Assembly: GCF_024700885.2 (NCBI RefSeq)
Contig: NZ_CP117016.1
Direction: 5' to 3' (one strand)
Length of the DNA stretch: 64,000 nucleotides
Source: Escherichia coli
GTDB lineage: Bacteria; Pseudomonadota; Gammaproteobacteria; Enterobacterales; Enterobacteriaceae
Shown here: one piece after another, positions 1-11,370 of the stretch
Layout: each line of letters starts with the position of its first letter
How positions within the stretch are numbered: the stretch's first letter is position 1
The notes under the pieces: model-generated
Told to the model about the DNA's origin: nothing
The model's database searches: none
The model's input: only the letters and a program-made list of their open reading frames with translations
Program-made: the position numbers and the translations under genes

Positions 1-215
1 AGTCAAATTTGTCCAACTTCCCTTGATTAAAAACAACGAGTTTTTTTATAGAAAAGAAAAACTTTCTCGCATAAGCTGAACTAAAATTCACAGCAGTATA
101 GGCAAGGGTCTCTTTTATAGATGCTAATAAGATAGCATTAATGTTTCTTTCAAAATATGAGAAATTTAATTTAACATCTTTGCTGAGAAACCAAACACTA
201 TCATGTAAACTAAAA

Positions 216-1547
216 TTATTTCTGCTGTCTTTTGCCTTTAATACCAAGTAATTTTCTAACATTAATGCTTTCATCTATTTCTCCTTCAATTTTATTTATG
301 ATTTCTTGATTCACTAAATCTGCCTCTTCAAAAGCTTTTAAAGTTTCTTCACTAATATAACGATTGTTATAAATCAAAGCCGTTTTGGAGTTCATTTTCC
401 ACCCCATTCTTACGCATCTGATTCTATCTAATTGGGTCAATCTATATTGATCAGTGACTCCTATGTATTTTAAACTGTAAATATAGTTCCATGTGTGCCG
501 TAGACAATGCCCTGTGAAATTTTGAAAAGATACTCCATTGAATTCAATTCTACTTATTTGCTTAATTACTTTATGATATGCACTTATTGACAGAGGAAAT
601 CCTTCCGTAGGACCAGATTTTTGAGTAATAAATAAGTAATTATGATTTAAGCTTTTCGAATAGAAAGACCTATCATTGTCTATATATGAAGAGATTTGCA
701 TAGACAATTTTTTGCTAATATTTAATTCTCGTTCAAATGTTTTAACAAGTGGTTGAAAAACTCTTGGGTCTGCTGGATCATTTATTCTTTTACAAACTTT
801 CAGATATCTTTTTTCCTTGTTAAAATCAGTAATTTTCAAGTTCAATAGCTCACCCCCTCGCATTCCAGTTTCCTGAAGAATGAGGATTATGAGTTGATTT
901 CTTTTACGGCAACTGATATCAACAAATGGATTGTATTGGCTTTCAGGTTCTATACATTGCAATAGAATGTCTAAGCTTTCTTTTTCTAATGATTTAAAAT
1001 CATTATTCAAATAGAATTGAGAGTTTAATTTTGGTTTATGTTTACGAAAAAGCAAACTAACACTTTTTGATATAATGTTTGTCTCATATATTGTAGTGCT
1101 AAAATATGATTCATAAATCCAAGAAATGTAGGAACTAATTACTGTCAATCTATAATGAAGATTTTCTTGATTGATCTTTTTATACTCTTTTATATCTATA
1201 ACTTTTTGTTTTTTATTTTTAACTCTAAGTTGTTCTGACAATGAATAGATTTCAGTAAAGCTAAGGAAGGTCTTAGATCTAATTCTTTCGATAAGATTTA
1301 TATTTGATTCTATTAGATAATTTTCAAAAGCAATCAAAGTGTAAGCATTTCTCAATACTGTATTAAATGACTTATTCTTTTGCTTATATAGCAAACTAAG
1401 ATATATATTTTGATAATACAATGGCAAACCGTTTTTTGAATCCAAAATCATACAAAATCTGCTTCCATCACTCGCCATTAACTTCTTTACTGAATATCTC
1501 CTATTCATTATCACCCCATAATTTATTTTTTTATTTATAGGTAACAT
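216..1547 (-). mobile_element. Tyrosine site-specific recombinase (phage integrase family), AT-rich foreign gene
   Basis: 443 aa ORF; recombinase motifs seen in translation: ETGMRGGELLNL (box I Arg), GHCLRHTWNY (H-x-x-R), LIYNNRY (candidate catalytic Tyr). Strongly AT-rich codon usage unlike flanking core genes. ATG at 1545-1547. Confidence 0.6.
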
Positions 1548-1626
1548 AATTTTTTAGCAAGTTACAAATTTATTTGCTATTATTTTCAATGACCTTATTA
1601 CTCGCGACTCTAATAAAGAATCGGCC

Positions 1627-1652
1627 ATATATTCACCTTAAGGTGAATATAT
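1627..1652. promoter_or_regulatory. Perfect 26-bp palindrome ATATATTCACCTTAAGGTGAATATAT just upstream of the tRNA cluster; candidate operator or recombinase site
   Basis: Read directly: 11-bp inverted arms around a TTAA centre, followed by TTGACG at 1661-1666. Function unverified. Confidence 0.3.
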
Positions 1653-1680
1653 ATTCCCTCTTGACGCTCCAAAAAACAAT

Positions 1681-1757
1681 GCGGTAGTAGTTCAGTTGGT
1701 CAGAATATTCCCCTGTCACGGGAATGGTCGTGGGTTCGAGTCCCATCTATCGCGCCA
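1681..1757 (+). tRNA. tRNA-Asp (anticodon GUC), island-borne
   Basis: Manual cloverleaf fold: acceptor GCGGTAG/CTATCGC, D arm GTTC/GAAT, anticodon stem TTCCC/GGGAA with loop CTGTCAC, T arm GTGGG-TTCGAGT-CCCAT, discriminator G, encoded CCA. Confidence 0.7.
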
Positions 1758-1761
1758 GAAA

Positions 1762-1836
1762 GGGCAATTAACTCATTGGTAGAGTGTATCTCTTACAAAG
1801 ATATGGCGGTTGGTTCGATTCCAACATTGCCCACCA
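1762..1836 (+). tRNA. tRNA-Val (anticodon UAC), island-borne
   Basis: Manual fold: acceptor GGGCAAT/ATTGCCC, D arm ACTC/GAGT, anticodon stem TATCT/AGATA with loop CTTACAA, T arm GTTGG-TTCGATT-CCAAC, encoded CCA. Differs from the chromosomal E. coli tRNA-Val sequence as recalled. Confidence 0.7.
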
Positions 1837-1847
1837 AAACATAAAAT

Positions 1848-1918
1848 GCGTCAGTATTTCAATGGTAGAATAAAACATTGCCAATGTTTAGGTGAGGGTT
1901 CGATCCCCCTATATTTAC
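1848..1918 (+). tRNA. tRNA-like element with Gly (GCC) anticodon arm; 3-prime acceptor strand not complementary, so possible pseudo-tRNA or recombination remnant
   Basis: D arm TTTC/GAAT, anticodon stem AAACA/TGTTT with loop TTGCCAA, T loop TTCGATC present. 5-prime acceptor GCGTCAG has no complementary 3-prime strand (ATATTTA) and no CCA. Confidence 0.3.
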
Positions 1919-2104
1919 TTTAGTTAGTAACTCATTGATATAAAATAAATAATAGAAAAGTGTAATTTGTTTTGTAAAGCACAAATAAGAAATTAGAAAA
2001 TATTTAAATGTACAGTGTACGAAAAATTAACCAACTATGTTAATGGCAACTATATGATGATAAAATTACTCATCTAACGATCTATATTATATGAGTAATG
2101 TTTC

Positions 2105-2680
2105 ATGGTACGAAAAATCTCTACATTTTTAAAGATAATAGGAGTTATAGGTTCTTTATGCGGGATTATTGCGACAGTATTCACAATCTATGCGTACTAC
2201 AACCCGACCTCCCCTTCTACTCAGAGATATGACAGTATTGTAGGAAGCTGGCTATCTGATTACTCTTACACCGTAAAAGGGAATACCGTTAGGGTTAATG
2301 GAAAAACGACCTTCTTCTCTAATGGAAAATACAACTTTCATGGCAGTATCTCTATTGACTCTAATGCTCCAGGTGACCATATATTAATAGATTATCTTTC
2401 TGATGGTGCTGGTGATTGGGAACTATATGATAATGAGTTAATTACATCATTAAATAGCCTAAAAACAAAACCTATGAAGCTGGCTTTAAATAACGAAGAT
2501 CTTGATCCACTGAAAATAGAGGTGATAAACAATAAAAAGTTACCAACTATTGAGGAGAATATGGCTGATGGGAAAAACCAATCCTATAAAATAATAAAAT
2601 CTTCAAAAAGCCAGTTAACATTGGAGGTTATTAACGAAATCGGAAGCAATTTCAACTTTACTATGCAAAAAACAAAATAG
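2105..2680 (+). CDS. Hypothetical membrane-anchored protein (single N-terminal TM helix), island cargo
   Basis: 191 aa ORF; hydrophobic N-terminus FLKIIGVIGSLCGIIATVFTIYAYY; AT-rich; convergent with the helicase gene and sharing a terminator with it. Confidence 0.45.
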   Translation: MVRKISTFLKIIGVIGSLCGIIATVFTIYAYYNPTSPSTQRYDSIVGSWLSDYSYTVKGNTVRVNGKTTFFSNGKYNFHGSISIDSNAPGDHILIDYLSDGAGDWELYDNELITSLNSLKTKPMKLALNNEDLDPLKIEVINNKKLPTIEENMADGKNQSYKIIKSSKSQLTLEVINEIGSNFNFTMQKTK

Positions 2681-2682
2681 AA

Positions 2683-2714
2683 ATGATGGCGATCTGAAAT
2701 CGCCATCATTTTTC
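2683..2714. terminator. Bidirectional rho-independent terminator between convergent genes
   Basis: Hairpin TGATGGCGAT-cugaa-ATCGCCATCA followed by TTTTT. Confidence 0.5.
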
Positions 2715-4560
2715 AACCTTGATAATCTTCAGCCTCGATACCACAATAAGTTATCATGTTTGTTATTAACGGTATATCATTACAATTCTGCTTGAAAGAC
2801 CTGCCATAACTATTGTTTCTTATTTTACAACGAGTCATTAATACTTCTTCAATGGCTCTTGAAAATGCCACAAAGACTGTTTTTTGATTTTCTATTTGCT
2901 CTTCTTCTTTACCAAAATAGGCACCAGGTTCAAGCCCCACAACGATGACCTTCCTGAACTCTAACCCTTTACTTTTATGGATGGTCATAAGAGGTATTGT
3001 TTTATTGCCAAGTAATAAATCAATGGCTTCTGATGTGTTTTCTTTTACATCTAACTTATCGAGGTGGCGAGAAAGTAATTCTATGCTATATTCTAAAACA
3101 TTCCCACTCATATACTGCGGAAAGTAAGACTTTATTTTATCGACACCAAATATACTTAATAATGAATATAAATAATCGACAATTTCTCCTTTAATTACCC
3201 GATGAGATTTAATAAACTGGCTAAGTTCTTTTTCTAACCGTGTAACATCACCTCTTTTACTTACTCCTCTTATATTACATAGAAGCTCCATTGTAGTGGC
3301 CCAGCTTTCTATGGATTTTCTATTACAGACAAACATTAGCATTTGTAAAAGTAACTGTACTACAGCTTCATTTAAAAGATCCTGATACTCGTTCTCAAGG
3401 CGACATTGTATTTTCAAATATTGCAATGCTGAAATGATATCGTCTGTATATTGTTTAGCCGGGTTTCTTAGCAGTATACATATATCTCTTTCATTTACTC
3501 CTTCAGCAATCCATTGCTGGATACATAATGCTATATATGCCCCTTCAATACTACTTTCGTCAAATTGTAGTAACTTAGCTGAACCTTCATTTTCAATCAA
3601 CATCATATCAGGCTTTATATCAGCATGATTCATGAAAGCTTCCATCATGCGTTGATAATTTATGAGGTTTTTTAATGACCTTCTATTGCTAACTAATTCA
3701 TTAGATTGTTCGATTCCAAAATCTTTTTTAAACACATCAAAAGCATTGTGCATTGCACCTGCCCAACCCATTATTCTTTGTTTTGTATCACCGACTGCTG
3801 TTATTTTTATTTTTTTACCCAAGAAAATGCTCTTAAAAATCTCATATTGCCTATATGTTGTGTCCTGAAACTCATCGATAAAAGCATAGTCATATGTTGA
3901 ATTTATAGCATTAGATAAATATTGATTCCTACTAATAATATAATTAGCAAGAAAATTAATCATCTTGAATGAAATCCTTGATTTTGGTTTTAATAAGTGT
4001 AACCACACAAACCGTCTTATCCTGCCATCAACAGAATGTTCTAATGCTTTATTATAAGGAGTTACTATATAATTCTCTTCAAAATTATAAGGTTGTAATT
4101 TATTTAATTCTTCAGATGTTAAACCTTCAAAGCCTACGGCCTCTCTTTTAATTTCTTCAACTAAATCATTATTATTTGGAAAGATTATTTCATAGTCATT
4201 TGATGGACGATAAGATTCCGGAATAGTGCTTTTAAAGCGATCAACAATACTTTTACAGAATGCATCAAATGTTGTTGATTCAAATTTGTGTCTATATTTT
4301 GTATCAAGCCGTGAGTTTACTCTATCTTGAAGATTTTTGGCCGCATCTTTTTTAAAGGATAATGCAATTATTTTTTTATTGCTGCATTTTCCTGTCTCAA
4401 TCAAGAAACAAGCTTTCTGAGCCAATAATTCTGTTTTACCTGCACCGGGACCAGCAAGAACGAGATTATGCCCTGTACTATTTCGAATTACCCTCATAGC
4501 CTCGTCTTCTACTTCTTGGATATCCTTTAAAACCCAATCGGCATCTTTAATAGTCGGCAT
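2713..4560 (-). CDS. UvrD/PcrA-like superfamily 1 helicase (GajB-like)
   Basis: 615 aa; SF1 helicase motifs in translation: LAGPGAGKTELL (I), IDEFQDTT (II), GDTKQRIMGW (III), VSNRRS (IV), TIHKSKGLEF (V), VAFSRA (VI). ATG overlaps the upstream stop by 1 nt (TAATG). Confidence 0.8.
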   Translation of the reverse strand: MPTIKDADWVLKDIQEVEDEAMRVIRNSTGHNLVLAGPGAGKTELLAQKACFLIETGKCSNKKIIALSFKKDAAKNLQDRVNSRLDTKYRHKFESTTFDAFCKSIVDRFKSTIPESYRPSNDYEIIFPNNNDLVEEIKREAVGFEGLTSEELNKLQPYNFEENYIVTPYNKALEHSVDGRIRRFVWLHLLKPKSRISFKMINFLANYIISRNQYLSNAINSTYDYAFIDEFQDTTYRQYEIFKSIFLGKKIKITAVGDTKQRIMGWAGAMHNAFDVFKKDFGIEQSNELVSNRRSLKNLINYQRMMEAFMNHADIKPDMMLIENEGSAKLLQFDESSIEGAYIALCIQQWIAEGVNERDICILLRNPAKQYTDDIISALQYLKIQCRLENEYQDLLNEAVVQLLLQMLMFVCNRKSIESWATTMELLCNIRGVSKRGDVTRLEKELSQFIKSHRVIKGEIVDYLYSLLSIFGVDKIKSYFPQYMSGNVLEYSIELLSRHLDKLDVKENTSEAIDLLLGNKTIPLMTIHKSKGLEFRKVIVVGLEPGAYFGKEEEQIENQKTVFVAFSRAIEEVLMTRCKIRNNSYGRSFKQNCNDIPLITNMITYCGIEAEDYQG

Positions 4561-6548
4561 TAAAGTAATCCTCTTACTGTTTCGATAATTTCATTAAGAA
4601 CTTCAGGACTATCATCTCTTAACTTATCGTCTTCCATTTTTGATAGAACATAATTGTGCGATAATGGTTTACCTCTTCCTAAAAATAGGTAACGATACCA
4701 AAAATATTTTTCATAATCATCGAACTCACTAATATCAATATCTTTCTCTTCTTTTTTCAAAACTGCAGCAATTGCCGATTTAACTTTATTATCATATTCA
4801 TGATCGTCATCTTTTGGCAATCTTGGCCCACCATTTTTGGGAACAAATGTCTTATAATCCTCAAAGAATTTATTAAGCATTAGCCAATCTAAATCGTAGG
4901 GGTAAGAAAAATAAACATTATAATCTTTTAGACAATTAATCCATGCCGATTCATTATCTTGATCCTCATCCCATGTATGCATTTTTTCAAGCTCTTCATC
5001 ACTTAAAGTTCCTGAAGTAATACTTAACAATTCATTTTTATCTGCACCTATAGATATTAATTGTTTGACTGCATATTTAATTCTTCCCCAACCACCACCT
5101 CCTCCTCTCTTGAAATCATAGTCGAGAAGAGTCACATGTGGAATTGAAAGCTCATTGAGTAACTTCCAAAAATGATTAACATATCGCCCTCCTAATGGAG
5201 CAAATGTTATCAATGAAGTGTCAAGCTCTATACCATTTACTTGAGCTATTTTAGGTATTACTATTTCTTCGCTATCACCTTCACCAAGTATTACAACTTT
5301 TGCAAAATAAATTTCTGGATATGCCTTCACTGCTTCTTTTACATAAGTGAAAGTATCAACATTGTCTCCATCGTCTTCATCTTCGCTTGGTAATAATATT
5401 GGTTTGACAACAGTATTTTTATTATCATGTAGACGAAAATACCTTATATTTTCTGGTTCTACTCTATTGAGTAATGAAGGTGCGTGTGTTGTTAAAACAA
5501 CCTGTGCTCGATCATTCTCAGATATATCTTCACATAGTTTAACTATTCTTCCTAAATATTGGGGTGAAAGATGATTTTCTGGTTCTTCGATTAATATTAT
5601 CGTTAAATTTGGAGGATCTAATGCTTCTACTGATATTGATAATTCATTTTCTCCTGAATTAATGATCTCATCTTCAATATCAAATGCAGATTTGACTAAC
5701 GAAAGATAAAACAATGACTTCATACCATCACTCAATCTTTCAGTTGGTAATGGCTGAGTCACCGGAGTAGGCATAAATACAGTATCTATATGCTTTAATA
5801 CATCTTCTATTCCATTCATTACTGGCTGAATTTTAAGCTGTTCAAAATACCCTCCGCTAAAAAGAGTTTTCCAATTTCTGCCCAATGAAGATGTTATTGT
5901 CTGAACCCCAATTTCTTCTTGGAACTGGTTTCCGATTGATTCTGCAACCTCATCAACCGTTGAACTCATCTGTTCAGACCATTCAACTGCATTTATCAAA
6001 CGGTGCATGATGGTTCCGGCTGTTTGCTTCAGTTGTTGAGCAGGATCGCGATAAGCAGGGACATAATGAACATGGATTTTTGATCTTTCATATGCTGTAA
6101 TATTTTTTTCATATTCTCCTATTTCCCATACTAAATCACTATCTATATCCCCTTCTGCAAGATTAGTTTTTGTCCATTTAGCTTTTAATTTTGCTATACA
6201 GTATGGGATCTGGTCTGCTTCATTTGAGACCAAATGCTTAAAGAAATCAGCGACTGAATCGTCCTCACCATCTTGCAGATCTGCAAATTCAAATTTTACA
6301 CGAACTGATAATTCTCTTTCATCTTGAGTATCGATTTCATCTCCAGGAGGAACATAAAAATCATCAACTTGAACAATTCTATCGGAGCTTTTGACACCAA
6401 ACATCCTTGTCAATGCGAGGAGAACAGCCGTCTTACCTGTTCCATTCCCTCCAATTAAGCTGGTGAATGAATTTATATTTATAGTTTGCCCTACATTATC
6501 AAAGCTCTTAAAACCTTTGATCTCCATTTGTGTAATTTTCATTATCAC
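4560..6548 (-). CDS. OLD-family ABC-type ATPase with C-terminal TOPRIM nuclease domain (GajA-like)
   Basis: 662 aa ORF from a GTG; likelier ATG start at 6542 with GAGGTG Shine-Dalgarno. Walker A GGNGTGKT, ILIEEPENHLSP (Walker B/D-loop typical of OLD ATPases), VLTTHAP (H-loop), TOPRIM-like VVILGEGDSEEIV and LLDYDFKRGGGGGWG. Confidence 0.8.
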   Translation of the reverse strand: MIMKITQMEIKGFKSFDNVGQTININSFTSLIGGNGTGKTAVLLALTRMFGVKSSDRIVQVDDFYVPPGDEIDTQDERELSVRVKFEFADLQDGEDDSVADFFKHLVSNEADQIPYCIAKLKAKWTKTNLAEGDIDSDLVWEIGEYEKNITAYERSKIHVHYVPAYRDPAQQLKQTAGTIMHRLINAVEWSEQMSSTVDEVAESIGNQFQEEIGVQTITSSLGRNWKTLFSGGYFEQLKIQPVMNGIEDVLKHIDTVFMPTPVTQPLPTERLSDGMKSLFYLSLVKSAFDIEDEIINSGENELSISVEALDPPNLTIILIEEPENHLSPQYLGRIVKLCEDISENDRAQVVLTTHAPSLLNRVEPENIRYFRLHDNKNTVVKPILLPSEDEDDGDNVDTFTYVKEAVKAYPEIYFAKVVILGEGDSEEIVIPKIAQVNGIELDTSLITFAPLGGRYVNHFWKLLNELSIPHVTLLDYDFKRGGGGGWGRIKYAVKQLISIGADKNELLSITSGTLSDEELEKMHTWDEDQDNESAWINCLKDYNVYFSYPYDLDWLMLNKFFEDYKTFVPKNGGPRLPKDDDHEYDNKVKSAIAAVLKKEEKDIDISEFDDYEKYFWYRYLFLGRGKPLSHNYVLSKMEDDKLRDDSPEVLNEIIETVRGLL

Positions 6549-7195
6549 CTCAATTGCTGTTTTAAAAAATTATAATCACTAATTATTTCTGCGTTTGTAA
6601 TGATTTCTTGTGAGCACAGCTTAAAACATTCTAAAAATATATTTTTATTATCGTTATGTTCCCAATGTTTTTTCAAAGCTTCTTCAATTGAAATCCAAAT
6701 AACTTGAAAATCGTTATTAGATATTTGGCTTGTTAAAACTGTTTCTTCCACACAAAGTATATGCCCTAAGATGACATCATCGTATATGTCAGTATCTGAA
6801 TCTCTAACTCCTAACCTTTTTATTTTCCTTTTTTGGATGATTTTATTTTTAACAATAAAAGGATGTTCTTCTATAAAATCGGTCAATGATGTAAAAGCCA
6901 AGCCACGAACCTGAGCACCATGCATTGAACTATTTACTTTATGGATATCTCTCCAAACTCGCAGATCACCTAATACATAGAGAACCCGCTGATTTCTCGC
7001 TTTCGTATCTTCTGCTTGGTATTGGATATAAGGTGGCCCTCCCCCATTTTGTCTATATCGGGCAAGGGTTTTGATGCTTATGCCAAGAAAGACAGAAGCA
7101 AGCTCACTATTTACAGTGGCAGAATCAGGCATTTGACCAAATAGTTTCCATACCTCTGAATACTCCCGCAAAACTTCCACCACACTCATCTTCAC
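6545..7195 (-). CDS. HTH-domain protein (excisionase/MerR-like N-terminus plus uncharacterised ~130 aa C-terminal domain), first gene of the defense operon
   Basis: 216 aa ORF (GTG at 7195 or ATG at 7189). N-terminal ELASVFLGISIKTLARYRQNGGGPPYIQY resembles excisionase-type HTH. Starts within 2 nt of the integrase stop and ends 2 nt before the GajA-like start. Confidence 0.5.
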   Translation of the reverse strand: MKMSVVEVLREYSEVWKLFGQMPDSATVNSELASVFLGISIKTLARYRQNGGGPPYIQYQAEDTKARNQRVLYVLGDLRVWRDIHKVNSSMHGAQVRGLAFTSLTDFIEEHPFIVKNKIIQKRKIKRLGVRDSDTDIYDDVILGHILCVEETVLTSQISNNDFQVIWISIEEALKKHWEHNDNKNIFLECFKLCSQEIITNAEIISDYNFLKQQLR

Positions 7196-8655
7196 TCCCT
7201 CGTTTCAGGTAATGGAGGATACTTAGCCGAAGCAAGTAACACATTGTATAATTTAGGAGCAGTCATAAGCATATGCAACTCAATCCTTTGTAATGCTTCA
7301 AAAATCCGTTCTTGATCAGGTTCTGCATACCTTTCTGTTGGATCTGTTGTATTTCTGTGATTGAGCAGTCTCTTAACGACGGCATATGAAACAAGTTCTT
7401 CAGCAACCCTACCAAATGTCCTTCGTAGATCATGCATACCAAGCTTCAGGATTCCCGCCTCTTGGCAGATATATTCCCTTAGACTTTTACTATCGGAATA
7501 GTGACCAACTTTACTTCGAGAAGAACGGGCCGGGAAAACCCACTTCTGTTTGTCCTTCTGGGTTACCGTATCGTTTACTATGTCTCTTCTATCTTCCAAA
7601 ATTCTTTTGACAGCATCACAAATCGGAAGCTCGTGATCGTTTCGATTCTTAGTGTCGTAAAAACGGATAGTTCTGTTACTCAGGTCAACATAGCTTGTCG
7701 TTTTAGCTTCTTCCTTTGTAAGAGACTCTCGCCAACACAGAGAAGCTGTTTCTTCCTTACGAGCACCTAAGAGAACGGTAAGTAGCAGATAATCGCACCC
7801 AAGCCGGTTGAAGCTTCTCTTGTTGAACAATGCAGTCAAGAACCGACCAAGTGTATCCTTTGGTGATAAGGGGTTTCTGACACCTTTTGCCCGATAACTA
7901 TCCTCAAGCTCAGAACGTGTCCTAAACTTTTTCTGTACCTTTAAGATACTGAAAGGGTTGTAAGATAGAGAAGGTTGTCGTTGCTGGGTCTGAGCATTCC
8001 CAGCTTCAATCTCTATTGCGTGTTTTACAGCAACATTCGCCCACCTAAAGGTCTGTTCCGCTGCTGTTCTGGCTCTTGAAGCAATCTCATCAAACTTCCT
8101 AAGAATTTCATTACCAGTAAGATCTTTAACTCGCAAACCAGCCCACTCAGAAAGCCTGTTTTCTGCTTTATCTAATACAGCCAAGGTGTTGGGTTTAGCT
8201 GGTTTCGCTCTACCCAGCAGATGCTGGCGGTATTGTGCAAACACTTCACTGATAGTGAGTTCAGAAGCATCGGACTCCCGTTTTATTTTGTTAGGGTTCC
8301 TTTTGGTCAACTTCATGGTTTGAACTAAATTGCGAGCAACCTCGCGGGCTTGATCGATGTTAGCGAAATCAGAGACATTGCCAATTGTAGACCTGATAAC
8401 CTCAGATGGGGATTTTCCCCCTGTCTTAGGGCGATTGCCAGGAGAAGAGACTCGTCGCTGAACGATATAGGTCTTTTTCGTTGCACTGATTTTGACACCA
8501 AAACCAACGGGTGAATCCCGGTGATTATCAGTGATAAGATACGGTTTTCGCTCTGGATTGGGTAAGTAGACTACTCTGCCTTGCGGATCAAGGCTCGGTT
8601 TCACGTCGATAGATAACTTATTGATTATAATCGACTGATTGAGTGTCATTTTCAT
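7192..8655 (-). mobile_element. int: P4-type tyrosine integrase
   Basis: ORF track 7192..8763; trimmed to internal ATG (MKMTLNQ...) at 8653-8655. N-terminal arm-binding-like region (YLITDNHRDSPVGFGVKISATKKTYIVQRR), box I ARKEE, HDLRRTF, C-terminal ERY. Near-host GC, unlike the cargo. Confidence 0.8.
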
Positions 8656-8658
8656 CGA

Positions 8659-8717
8659 TGTATACCAGTGGTTCAAGTGTGTATACCAGATAGTAGCTAG
8701 AATACTTCTGGTATACA
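8659..8717. repeat. Three copies of TGTATACCAG (two direct, one inverted) at the integrase 5-prime end; candidate integrase-binding or att-associated sites
   Basis: Exact 10-mers at 8659-8668 and 8680-8689 (direct) and 8708-8717 (inverted), between the integrase start and mutS. Confidence 0.45.
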
Positions 8718-8787
8718 AATTTATGGGTTTATGTGAGTTTAAAGGGGTATCACTTGGGGCCACATAAGTACTCAGAAGACTTTAAAA

Positions 8788-11370
8788 ATGAGTAAAATCA
8801 ATATGAAAGAGTCTGCAAGCAAGGATCTATCAGACCACACTCCTATGATGCAGCAATATCTCAAGCTGAAAGCCCAGCATCCCGAGATCCTGCTGTTTTA
8901 CCGGATGGGTGATTTTTATGAACTGTTTTATGACGACGCAAAACGCGCGTCGCAACTGCTGGATATTTCACTGACCAAACGCGGTGCTTCGGCGGGAGAG
9001 CCGATCCCGATGGCGGGGATCCCCTACCATGCGGTGGAAAACTACCTCGCCAAACTGGTGAATCAGGGCGAGTCCGTTGCCATCTGCGAACAAATTGGCG
9101 ATCCGGCGACCAGCAAAGGTCCGGTTGAGCGCAAAGTTGTGCGTATCGTTACGCCAGGCACCATCAGCGATGAAGCCCTGTTGCAGGAGCGTCAGGACAA
9201 CCTGCTGGCGGCTATCTGGCAGGACAGCAAAGGTTTCGGCTACGCGACGCTGGATATCAGTTCCGGGCGTTTTCGCCTGAGCGAACCGGCTGACCGCGAA
9301 ACGATGGCGGCAGAGCTGCAACGCACTAATCCGGCAGAGCTGTTGTATGCAGAAAATTTCGCCGAGATGTCGCTGATTGAAGGTCGTCGCGGACTGCGCC
9401 GTCGCCCGCTATGGGAGTTTGAAATCGACACCGCGCGCCAGCAGTTGAATCTGCAATTTGGCACCCGCGATCTGGTCGGTTTTGGCGTCGAGAACGCGCC
9501 GCGCGGACTTTGTGCTGCCGGTTGTCTGTTGCAGTATGCGAAAGATACCCAACGTACGACTCTGCCGCATATTCGTTCCATCACCATGGAACGTGAGCAG
9601 GACAGCATCATTATGGATGCCGCGACGCGTCGTAATCTGGAAATCACCCAGAACCTGGCGGGTGGTGCGGAAAATACGCTGGCTTCTGTGCTCGACTGCA
9701 CCGTCACGCCGATGGGCAGCCGTATGCTGAAACGCTGGCTGCATATGCCAGTGCGCGATACCCGCGTCTTGCTTGAGCGCCAGCAAACTATTGGCGCATT
9801 GCAGGATTTCACCGCCGAGCTGCAGCCGGTACTGCGTCAGGTCGGCGACCTGGAACGTATTCTGGCGCGTCTGGCTTTACGAACTGCTCGCCCACGCGAT
9901 CTGGCCCGTATGCGTCACGCTTTCCAGCAACTGCCGGAGCTGCGTGCGCTATTAGAAAATGTCGATAGCGCTCCGGTACAGGCGCTGCGTGAAAAAATGG
10001 GCGAGTTTGCCGAGCTGCGCGATCTGCTGGAGCGAGCAATCATCGACACACCGCCAGTGCTGGTACGCGACGGTGGTGTTATCGCACCGGGCTATAACGA
10101 AGAGCTGGATGAGTGGCGCGCGCTGGCTGACGGCGCGACCGATTATCTGGAGCGTCTGGAAGTCCGCGAGCGTGAACGTACTGGCCTGGACACCCTGAAA
10201 GTCGGCTTTAACGCGGTTCATGGTTATTACATTCAGATCAGCCGTGGACAAAGCCATCTGGCACCCATCAATTACATGCGTCGCCAGACGCTGAAAAACG
10301 CCGAGCGCTACATTATTCCAGAGCTAAAAGAGTACGAAGACAAAGTTCTCACTTCAAAAGGCAAAGCACTGGCACTGGAAAAACAGCTTTATGAAGAGTT
10401 GTTCGACCTGCTGTTGCCGCATCTGGAAGCGTTGCAACAGAGCGCGAGCGCGCTGGCGGAACTCGACGTGCTGGTGAACCTGGCAGAACGGGCCTATACG
10501 CTGAACTACACCTGCCCGACCTTTATTGATAAACCGGGTATTCGCATCACCGAAGGCCGCCATCCGGTGGTTGAACAGGTGCTGAATGAGCCGTTTATCG
10601 CCAACCCGCTGAACCTGTCGCCGCAGCGTCGCATGTTGATCATTACCGGTCCGAATATGGGCGGTAAAAGTACCTATATGCGCCAGACCGCACTGATTGC
10701 GCTGATGGCCTACATCGGCAGCTATGTACCGGCACAAAAAGTCGAGATTGGACCTATCGATCGCATCTTTACCCGCGTAGGGGCAGCGGATGATCTGGCA
10801 TCCGGGCGTTCAACCTTTATGGTGGAAATGACCGAAACCGCCAATATTTTACATAACGCCACCGAGTACAGTCTGGTGCTGATGGATGAGATTGGGCGCG
10901 GGACGTCCACTTACGATGGTCTGTCGCTGGCGTGGGCGTGCGCGGAAAATCTGGCGAATAAGATTAAAGCGTTGACACTGTTTGCCACCCACTATTTCGA
11001 GCTGACCCAGTTACCGGAGAAAATGGAAGGCGTCGCCAACGTGCATCTCGATGCGCTGGAGCACGGCGACACCATTGCCTTTATGCACAGCGTGCAGGAT
11101 GGCGCGGCGAGCAAAAGCTACGGCCTGGCGGTTGCAGCTCTGGCAGGCGTGCCAAAAGAGGTTATTAAGCGCGCACGGCAAAAACTGCGTGAGCTGGAAA
11201 GCATTTCGCCGAACGCCGCCGCTACGCAAGTGGATGGTACGCAAATGTCTTTGCTGTCAGTGCCAGAAGAAACGTCGCCTGCGGTCGAGGCACTGGAAAA
11301 CCTCGACCCGGATTCACTGACTCCGCGTCAGGCGCTGGAGTGGATTTATCGCTTGAAGAGTCTGGTGTAA
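8788..11370 (+). CDS. mutS: DNA mismatch repair protein MutS, with a non-K-12 N-terminus
   Basis: 860 aa; near-identical to E. coli MutS from about residue 17 (HTPMMQQYL...). First ~16 residues ([16 protein letters not shown]) differ from the K-12 N-terminus (MSAIENFDA, from memory). Confidence 0.95.

Follow-up and report, generated by a model that had tools for sequence, protein, structure and literature searches.

Within the 64,000-nucleotide stretch of Escherichia coli DNA analyzed here (the window), a gene coding for a helix-turn-helix (HTH) protein is wedged between the gene for a tyrosine integrase and the two genes of a Gabija defence system. The question is to which of its neighbours this gene belongs. 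The earlier note had offered two readings: a third component of Gabija that regulates the module or senses its trigger, or an excision factor of the island. Our analysis points to the second: the HTH gene is probably a backbone gene of islands inserted at mutS, most likely an excision or regulatory partner of the integrase, with Gabija as interchangeable cargo.

The open reading frame had been placed on the minus strand at 6545-7195 and assigned 216 aa. The frame exists, but the gene almost certainly starts with the ATG at 7189 rather than at 7195, because a GGGAG Shine-Dalgarno sequence is located upstream of this ATG, all homologues begin at the corresponding position, and the PGAP annotation also uses 7189. 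The gene occupies 6545..7189 and encodes a two-domain protein of 214 aa. Both tight junctions described for it were found. On the integrase side the sequence reads GAG TGA AG ATG, with the integrase stop codon (7192-7194) within 2 nt of the HTH start, and on the other side it reads AGG TGA TA ATG, with the HTH stop codon (6545-6547) 2 nt before the gajA ATG at 6542. The neighbours are also those that had been named, a tyrosine integrase by Pfam and GajA and GajB by PADLOC. The HTH frame is a genuine gene and not a chance open reading frame, since its homologues formed 195 clusters in the first search and 353 clusters (at 50% identity) in a profile search, and since dN/dS is low, 0.04-0.1 in the N-terminal half and 0.2-0.45 in the C-terminal half. 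The gene is under purifying selection. These 353 clusters represent a widespread, uncharacterized family of two-domain integrase partners that has no Pfam family.

The integrase gene (7192..8655, minus strand, 487 aa) is divergent from mutS and is the constant upstream partner of the HTH gene. Its product was matched by Pfam Phage_integrase (E = 2.3e-10), weakly by Arm-DNA-bind_3, and by a PHROG integrase family; a PDB sequence search gave no match. Integrase identity across all loci was 75-100%. In each of the 46 loci holding an HTH homologue, the homologue was located downstream of the mutS-adjacent integrase and on the same strand. These loci span at least 10 genera of Enterobacterales and came from Escherichia, Klebsiella, Citrobacter, Salmonella, Yersinia, Erwinia, Pantoea, Rahnella, Dickeya, Pectobacterium, Yokenella and Pseudocitrobacter. 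Remote homologues (profile E-values of 6e-53 to 8e-17) directly followed a tyrosine integrase in four of four cases, often with a 4-nt overlap, and adjoined mutS wherever the flank was visible. In both sets the gene lies beside a site-specific integrase and is co-inherited with it, as is characteristic of a recombination directionality factor (RDF). This invariable linkage to a mutS-targeting integrase, together with the fold described below, favours the excision factor of the two readings that had been proposed.

Residues 1 to ~100 of the HTH protein form an excisionase-type winged-helix DNA-binding fold. The description of the N-terminus as excisionase/MerR-like was borne out by this fold and by a PDB profile match to RdfS (E = 0.006). 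Pfam HTH_17 was not significant (E = 0.21), and for remote homologues the HTH_17 match on record is weak or faint. Searches of NCBIfam and PHROGs gave nothing useful. An uncharacterized C-terminal domain is present as had been stated, although it comprises ~110 aa (residues ~105-214) and not ~130. It is composed of a beta-hairpin module, which follows the winged helix, and a helical part with a long helix of 35 residues near the C-terminus. Searches with this domain gave no known relative, and its role is therefore a guess. RdfS, the recombination directionality factor of ICEMlSymR7A (PDB 8dgl), is a single domain of 91 aa, whereas the HTH protein contains an additional C-terminal domain, and its gene immediately follows that of its own integrase. 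Similarly, it differs from the AlpA-family/HTH_17 excisionases (GIsul2 Xis 8c3t, Tn916 Xis, TorI and Pukovnik Xis) in its non-significant HTH_17 match, its two domains and the position of its gene after, not before, the integrase. Typical RDFs are small single-domain proteins of about 55-130 aa; with 214 aa and a second domain, the HTH protein is about twice their size.

A different island function, such as anti-defence, partition or replication control, could in principle be carried by a gene that rides beside the integrase. The C-terminal fold without a known relative evolves fast (dN/dS up to 0.45), and fold comparison found similar winged helices also in small terminase subunits, Par proteins and RppC, both of which would suit such a function. 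However, over very large evolutionary distances the HTH gene keeps its strict place after the integrase and its translational coupling to it, which marks a recombination module rather than an accessory gene, and we regard such a function as improbable.

The island lies within the 5' end of mutS (8803..11370, plus strand), whose promoter and first ~12 codons come from the island instead of the native ones, which encode MSAIENFDAH. Inside the mutS 5' coding region, an att core sequence, CCACACTCCTATGATGCAGCAATATC (8835..8860, plus strand), is matched by CCATACGCCCATGATGCAGCAGTACC at the far island end, the two forming imperfect 26-bp direct repeats. Next to CCATACGCCCATGATGCAGCAGTACC, the native promoter of mutS and its first 17 codons remain in orphaned form. 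An island 99.9% identical to this one is present in strain NCTC8623, and CFSAN061761 is a further carrier strain. Because these islands rewrite the mutS promoter and first codons, they may influence mismatch-repair expression. A comparable arrangement is that of SXT/R391, whose insertion at the start of the prfC coding region provides a new promoter and N-terminal codons while the gene stays intact, as is seen here for mutS; the target gene and integrase differ, and in the present case a small mobilizable island is inserted in mutS. In addition to the integrase and att repeats, the annotation of the island includes a relaxase, which lies outside the window, and no conjugation apparatus was seen in the part of the island viewed. 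This combination, with a relaxase but without a full conjugation apparatus, is that of an integrative mobilizable element (IME).

The same site, mutS-ygbA, is E. coli defence hotspot #8 of Hochhauser et al. 2023 (PMC10121019), whose S2 Table assigns its islands to IME or IME+GInt, with CONJScan typing as IME. Mageeney et al. 2020 (PMC7192596) noted mutS-targeting integrase clades and suggested inactivation of mutS. Like the island in the window, the islands of these accounts occupy this site as IME or IME+GInt, with interchangeable cargo (Qat, retron, AbiP2, RM and Her). The HTH gene, two cargo slots and a preserved mutS frame are not described in the sections of the two accounts considered here.

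Three exact copies of a 9-mer, GTATACCAG, two direct and one inverted, are located at 8660..8716, between the integrase start and mutS. The 64-kb sequence contains four matches to this motif compared to 0.21 expected, and near-copies occur at the other island end. The repeat layout is conserved, with lineage-specific variants of the motif. These repeats are candidate binding sites for the arm domain of the integrase or for the HTH protein. Their location, precisely in the region of the divergent integrase and mutS promoters, would also fit a MerR/AlpA-like island transcription factor instead of an architectural excisionase. Such a factor would turn on or off the integrase-HTH-cargo operon, the genes for mobilization or the mutS promoter that points outward, and its C-terminal domain would serve in dimerization or signal sensing; the 35-residue helix could dimerize, most cargo has the same orientation as the integrase and HTH genes, and no terminator was found before the end of gajB. 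However, the nearest fold and sequence matches of the HTH protein are excisionases and not MerR proteins, Pfam MerR gave no match, and the long helix does not directly follow the winged helix, as the antiparallel coiled-coil dimerization helix of MerR proteins does, but is separated from it by the beta-hairpin module. We consider a transcription factor unlikely, although well worth keeping in mind. Since many RDFs also regulate transcription, it overlaps with an excision partner of the integrase and does not exclude it.

The genes found beside the HTH gene vary among loci. The neighbouring cargo is Gabija in the window and DRT3 or a Sll1717-type ATPase in other loci, and the slot after the HTH gene is empty in four (L030, L031, L034 and L036). 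In further loci, QatABCD, Hachiman or ToxN separates the integrase gene from the HTH gene. The HTH gene is flanked by two cargo slots, one in the integrase-HTH interval and one after the gene. It marks the border between the integration module of the island and the swappable cargo, and its family could be used as a marker for mutS-targeting islands and for their two flanking defence-cargo slots.

This distribution bears on the proposal that this Gabija subtype includes the HTH protein as a third, accessory component. Gabija neighbourhoods are only some of those in which homologues occur, as others adjoin DRT3, Qat, Hachiman, ToxN, the Sll1717-type ATPase, further genes or an empty slot. Conversely, the earlier note had named absence of the gene from other loci with the same GajA/GajB subtype as part of a refutation, and the gene is absent beside the Gabija of Pantoea agglomerans (L044-46), whose GajA and GajB are 88% identical to those in the window. 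These loci are in an island of the P4-type-integrase kind; homology begins only 36 nt upstream of gajA, and all that remains of the HTH gene is a remnant of ~31 nt from its 3' end. In addition, no PADLOC family matched the HTH protein at E <= 0.01. A functional tie to Gabija would be consistent with the 2-nt spacing between the HTH gene and gajA, which is constant in all mutS-island Gabija loci (GajA identity of 82-100%), and with a distinctive Gabija-linked variant of the C-terminal domain, which carries a 14-aa insertion, is no more than 38% identical to any other variant and has 27% GC. Recombination junctions are found repeatedly where the two domains of the HTH protein meet (codon ~103), and this variant is co-inherited with gajA across them. 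Co-inheritance is explained by physical linkage, though a functional tie could remain. In L012-15, however, Gabija has been replaced, yet the same C-domain variant is retained together with a 54-nt gajA remnant. ToxN can part the HTH gene from the integrase and not from gajA, as expected from simple adjacency. Thus, a third component appears to be largely refuted already by these comparative data, and we find it hardly credible. Position inside a defence operon does not by itself make a gene part of the defence system, and the present case corrects a tempting misreading of this kind.

A narrower version would have the divergent C-terminal domain of the Gabija-bearing lineages recruited to sense or regulate, tying the expression or activation of Gabija to island excision. 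Since excision returns mutS to its native promoter and N-terminus, mismatch repair would be modulated by the same switch. Although this coupling is very doubtful, it would, if true, place a link between phage defence and mutation rate under the control of a mobile element.

Recombination within the HTH gene was considered in other ways. That cargo determines the type of C-terminal domain was rejected as a general rule, because identity matrices revealed one C-domain lineage with different cargo or with none; loci sharing Hachiman as cargo have C-domains only 44% identical. Insertion of a trio element into the HTH gene with a replacement 3' half was also rejected, because no displaced remnants were detected: a six-frame search of all loci with N- and C-domain HMMs gave chance-level matches only. 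A site-specific recombination site at codon ~103 does not fit the sequences either, in which third-codon positions vary freely and no invariant run of at least 6 nt is present. These junctions are more simply explained by homologous recombination, with selection for hybrids that stay in frame.

Gabija itself is represented by gajA (4560..6542, minus strand), coding for an OLD-family ATPase/TOPRIM nuclease (PADLOC GajA PDLC00090, E = 1.9e-240), and gajB (2713..4560, minus strand), coding for a UvrD-like helicase (GajB PDLC00103, E = 2.6e-198). Both matches are full length, as in canonical two-gene Gabija, and the genes overlap in TAATG at 4560; by its distribution, the HTH gene is outside this system. 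A single 4,625-bp blastn segment (1955..6578), 87.4% identical to a Pantoea agglomerans island of another type, delimits the moving cassette. It contains the final ~31 nt of the HTH frame, gajA, gajB, a 191-aa gene and ~150 nt beyond. The 2-nt spacing between the HTH gene and gajA is explained by this cassette junction, which falls inside the last HTH codons. These codons hold TATAAT (6569-6574) and the gajA ribosome-binding site, and Gabija is thus probably served by a -10 box and a ribosome-binding site of its own there. A further promoter-like site, TTGAAA-18-GATAAT (6647..6676, minus strand), lies in the part coding for the C-terminal domain, ~100 nt upstream of gajA. It is weak evidence, and internal promoters are a conjecture, because promoter-like sites in the region were not more numerous than in shuffled sequence. 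A strong hairpin terminator with a 14-bp stem (2681..2711, minus strand) is located just after gajB, between gajB and the convergent 191-aa gene, and closes the co-oriented integrase-HTH-gajA-gajB block, in which no terminator was found upstream of it. Judging from this layout, co-transcription of the HTH gene with Gabija is plausible.

Returning to the HTH protein as integrase partner, we propose that the two genes form a module of integrative mobilizable islands at the ygbA-mutS site. The N-terminal winged helix would most likely bind DNA near the island ends or at the integrase promoter, and the protein could act as a recombination directionality factor, as an autoregulator of the integrase, or as both, promoting excision. 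The faster-evolving C-terminal domain would probably mediate oligomerization or contact with the integrase. Gabija is cargo in one of the two slots beside the HTH gene.

Several other genes of the island were analyzed. The 191-aa predicted membrane-anchored protein (2105..2680, plus strand) moves with Gabija into Pantoea (79% identity), and homologues of it (40-46% identity) also adjoin the recombinase trio in islands without Gabija. The first gene of this trio is at 216..1508 (minus strand), and a second recombinase overlaps positions 1-274 and runs off the left window edge. The set codes for two tyrosine recombinases, for a protein of ~548 aa and for a small protein, and it resembles in gene layout GInt, defined by ginABCD (PMC5385486), with three consecutive integrase-like genes and a small fourth one; the 548-aa protein had no Pfam or PDB match. 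Gamma-Mobile-Trio elements have the same layout, but the set does not belong to them, as the NCBIfam models stayed far below cut-off (GmtY, 29 bits against 340) and GmtZ and GmtX had no matches in the trio. ARAGORN predicted a tRNA-Asp(GTC) and tRNA-Val(TAC) pair at 1681..1836 (plus strand). This pair is carried on a ~250-bp insertion found in only some islands, being absent from L004, L012, L016, L037 and L040 and present in L039.

Positions 1-8800 of the window were 100% identical to strain CFSAN061761 (Escherichia coli). Four genes are arranged head to tail on the minus strand: a tyrosine integrase (7192-8655), the helix-turn-helix (HTH) ORF (6545-7189, or to 7195 if an upstream GTG is counted), gajA (4560-6542) and gajB (2713-4560). 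The earlier note had described an ORF tightly spaced between integrase and gajA, and this was borne out: the junctions, TGA-AG-ATG on the integrase side and TGA-TA-ATG on the gajA side, matched exactly. The likely start is the ATG at 7189, given the GGGAG upstream, the use of the same start in all homologues and the PGAP annotation of 214 aa. From integrase through gajB, no terminator-like hairpin was found before a 14-bp stem at 2681-2711, directly after gajB.

The HTH ORF is a genuine gene. Its homologues formed 195 clusters in one search, and a profile search gave 353 at 50% identity. Among close relatives, dN/dS was 0.04-0.1 in the N-terminal half and higher, 0.2-0.45, in the C-terminal half. 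An AlphaFold model (51 homologues, pLDDT 73) predicted two domains and a poorly ordered linker.

Distribution of the gene followed the integrase. When 5,426 complete E. coli genomes were searched by megablast with the first 8.8 kb of the window, 107 gave a match and only 13 contained the whole segment; in most of the remainder, the match was limited to the integrase plus ~300 nt at the start of the HTH ORF, and in annotated examples DRT3 or other genes occupied the place of Gabija in an otherwise unchanged frame. Comparison loci were gathered by four routes (exact-protein look-ups, one genome per species, GajA homologues and remote profile hits). In all 46 loci holding an HTH homologue, which span at least 10 genera of Enterobacterales, it lay downstream of a mutS-facing integrase on the same strand. 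Remote homologues (profile E down to 8e-17) followed a 450-500-aa tyrosine integrase in four of four cases, several with a 4-nt overlap between the two genes, and mutS was again the divergent neighbor where the flank was visible. Cargo 3′ of the HTH gene was Gabija, DRT3, a Sll1717-family ATPase, assorted unknowns, or none (the next backbone gene being 158 nt away in loci L030, L031 and L034 and 53 nt away in L036), and QatABCD, Hachiman or ToxN could be present between integrase and HTH gene. Because cargo differs among islands on either side of it, the HTH gene is flanked by two cargo slots within a conserved island backbone. The ToxN/AbiQ-type toxin gene of loci L004-L011 (9124-9630) is on the opposite strand, and this form of the Gabija island is widespread (224 contigs). 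In L051, a remotely related version of the island site, mutS is flanked on its other side by genes for a ThsB-like TIR protein and a protein with a SLATT domain (202-654 and 1-193).

In complete E. coli genomes, this Gabija subtype was confined to these islands (13 genomes); outside E. coli, it was also found in other settings. The proposed survey of GajA neighborhoods identified GajA and GajB of 88% identity in Pantoea agglomerans, within an island with a P4-type integrase in which a homologue of the HTH ORF was absent. This absence, together with the varied cargo around the gene, argues against the suggestion that the HTH protein is a third Gabija component. DNA homology between the window and the Pantoea island was a single 4,625-bp block (6578 to 1955), extending from 36 nt upstream of gajA to ~150 nt past a gene for a 191-aa protein. 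These 36 nt form the 3′ end of the HTH ORF; within them lie a TATAAT (6569-6574) and, as ribosome-binding site for gajA, GAGGTG. Since the homology begins inside the ORF, the tight HTH/gajA spacing results from a cassette junction within its last codons and not from a functional fusion. Loci L012-L015 kept the Gabija-linked variant of the HTH protein together with ~54 nt from the start of gajA, although Gabija itself had been replaced. The 191-aa predicted membrane-anchored protein (2105-2680, convergent with gajB) travels with the cassette into the Pantoea island (79% identity), and in islands that lack Gabija, homologues of 40-46% identity also adjoin the recombinase trio. In Pantoea (L044-L046, 1-4881), the cassette adjoins an 1,837-aa DUF4011/AAA_11/AAA_12/DUF3320 helicase-like protein, possibly another defense gene.

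The HTH gene is itself mosaic. Compared to the window, L004-L011 showed only 72% identity in the N-terminal domain, with saturated dS, versus 93-94% in the C-terminal domain (dS 0.14) and 93% in GajA. Sliding identity placed the switch at nt ~300-310, which coincided with the breakpoint of DRT3 islands and locus L040; three independent recombination junctions fall at the interdomain linker (6875-6890). GC content also shifts there, from 42.9% in the N-terminal half (integrase, 43.4%) to a cargo-like 27.3% in the C-terminal half, a trend recurring in other Enterobacterales. Neither a conserved site at the nucleotide level at this junction nor displaced fragments of the HTH gene were found, and we therefore read the mosaic as cargo blocks exchanged by homologous recombination, selection having favored hybrids joined in frame at the domain linker. 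As a general rule, the C-terminal domain is not specific to the cargo.

In CFSAN061761 the island measures ~18.6 kb, of which the window contains only the 8.8 kb nearest mutS. At the far end, beside ygbA, the native promoter of mutS and its first 17 codons have been left orphaned, followed by island sequence (locus L050, ~9771-9900); at the near end (8656-8860), the new mutS promoter region and N-terminus come from the island. Both junctions carry a 26-bp imperfect direct repeat, the near copy at 8835-8860. The orphaned native start, the island-supplied start and these repeats together indicate insertion within the 5′ coding end of mutS with the reading frame kept, similar to SXT, which likewise inserts in the 5′ end of prfC in frame. 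Between the integrase start and mutS, three exact copies of the 9-mer GTATACCAG (0.21 expected in the whole window) lie within 57 bp (8660-8716), two direct and one inverted, and near-copies occur beside the far end. In other island lineages, the layout is unchanged but the repeated motif differs (GTAGCTCAC/GGGCTAC). The GTATACCAG repeats are candidate sites at which the arm domain of the integrase, or the HTH protein, would bind. The invariant integrase linkage and the predicted fold make an island excision factor, a reading that the earlier note had offered as well, the best-supported function for the HTH gene, the chief rival being a mainly regulatory role.

The mutS-ygbA site is reported as E. 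coli defense hotspot #8, occupied in 27 of 1,322 genomes, its islands being typed there as IME or IME+GInt with Qat, retron, AbiP2, RM or Her cargo (PMC10121019). Integrase clades targeting mutS are also on record (PMC7192596), and in Morganellaceae, IMEs have been placed immediately upstream of mutS (PMC9058013). The HTH gene is an unusual two-domain form of a known kind, in an island type and hotspot already catalogued; three features merit follow-up, namely how the 5′ end of mutS is replaced, the pair of cargo slots, and the junction that recurs where the two domains meet. The mobilizable island carries a GInt-like set of two tyrosine recombinases, a 468-548-aa protein without a Pfam match and a 127-aa protein (window 1-1508; locus L001, 6511-10508). 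With its 548-aa form, this set has the same layout as ginABCD (PMC5385486); Gamma-Mobile-Trio cut-offs were not reached. Its third gene is truncated by IS1 in the present strain. In addition, tRNA-Asp(GTC) and tRNA-Val(TAC) (1681-1836) lie within the island on an insertion of ~250 bp, immediately upstream of the first recombinase of the trio, and this pair occurs in only some islands (the window and L039), being missing from otherwise collinear ones.
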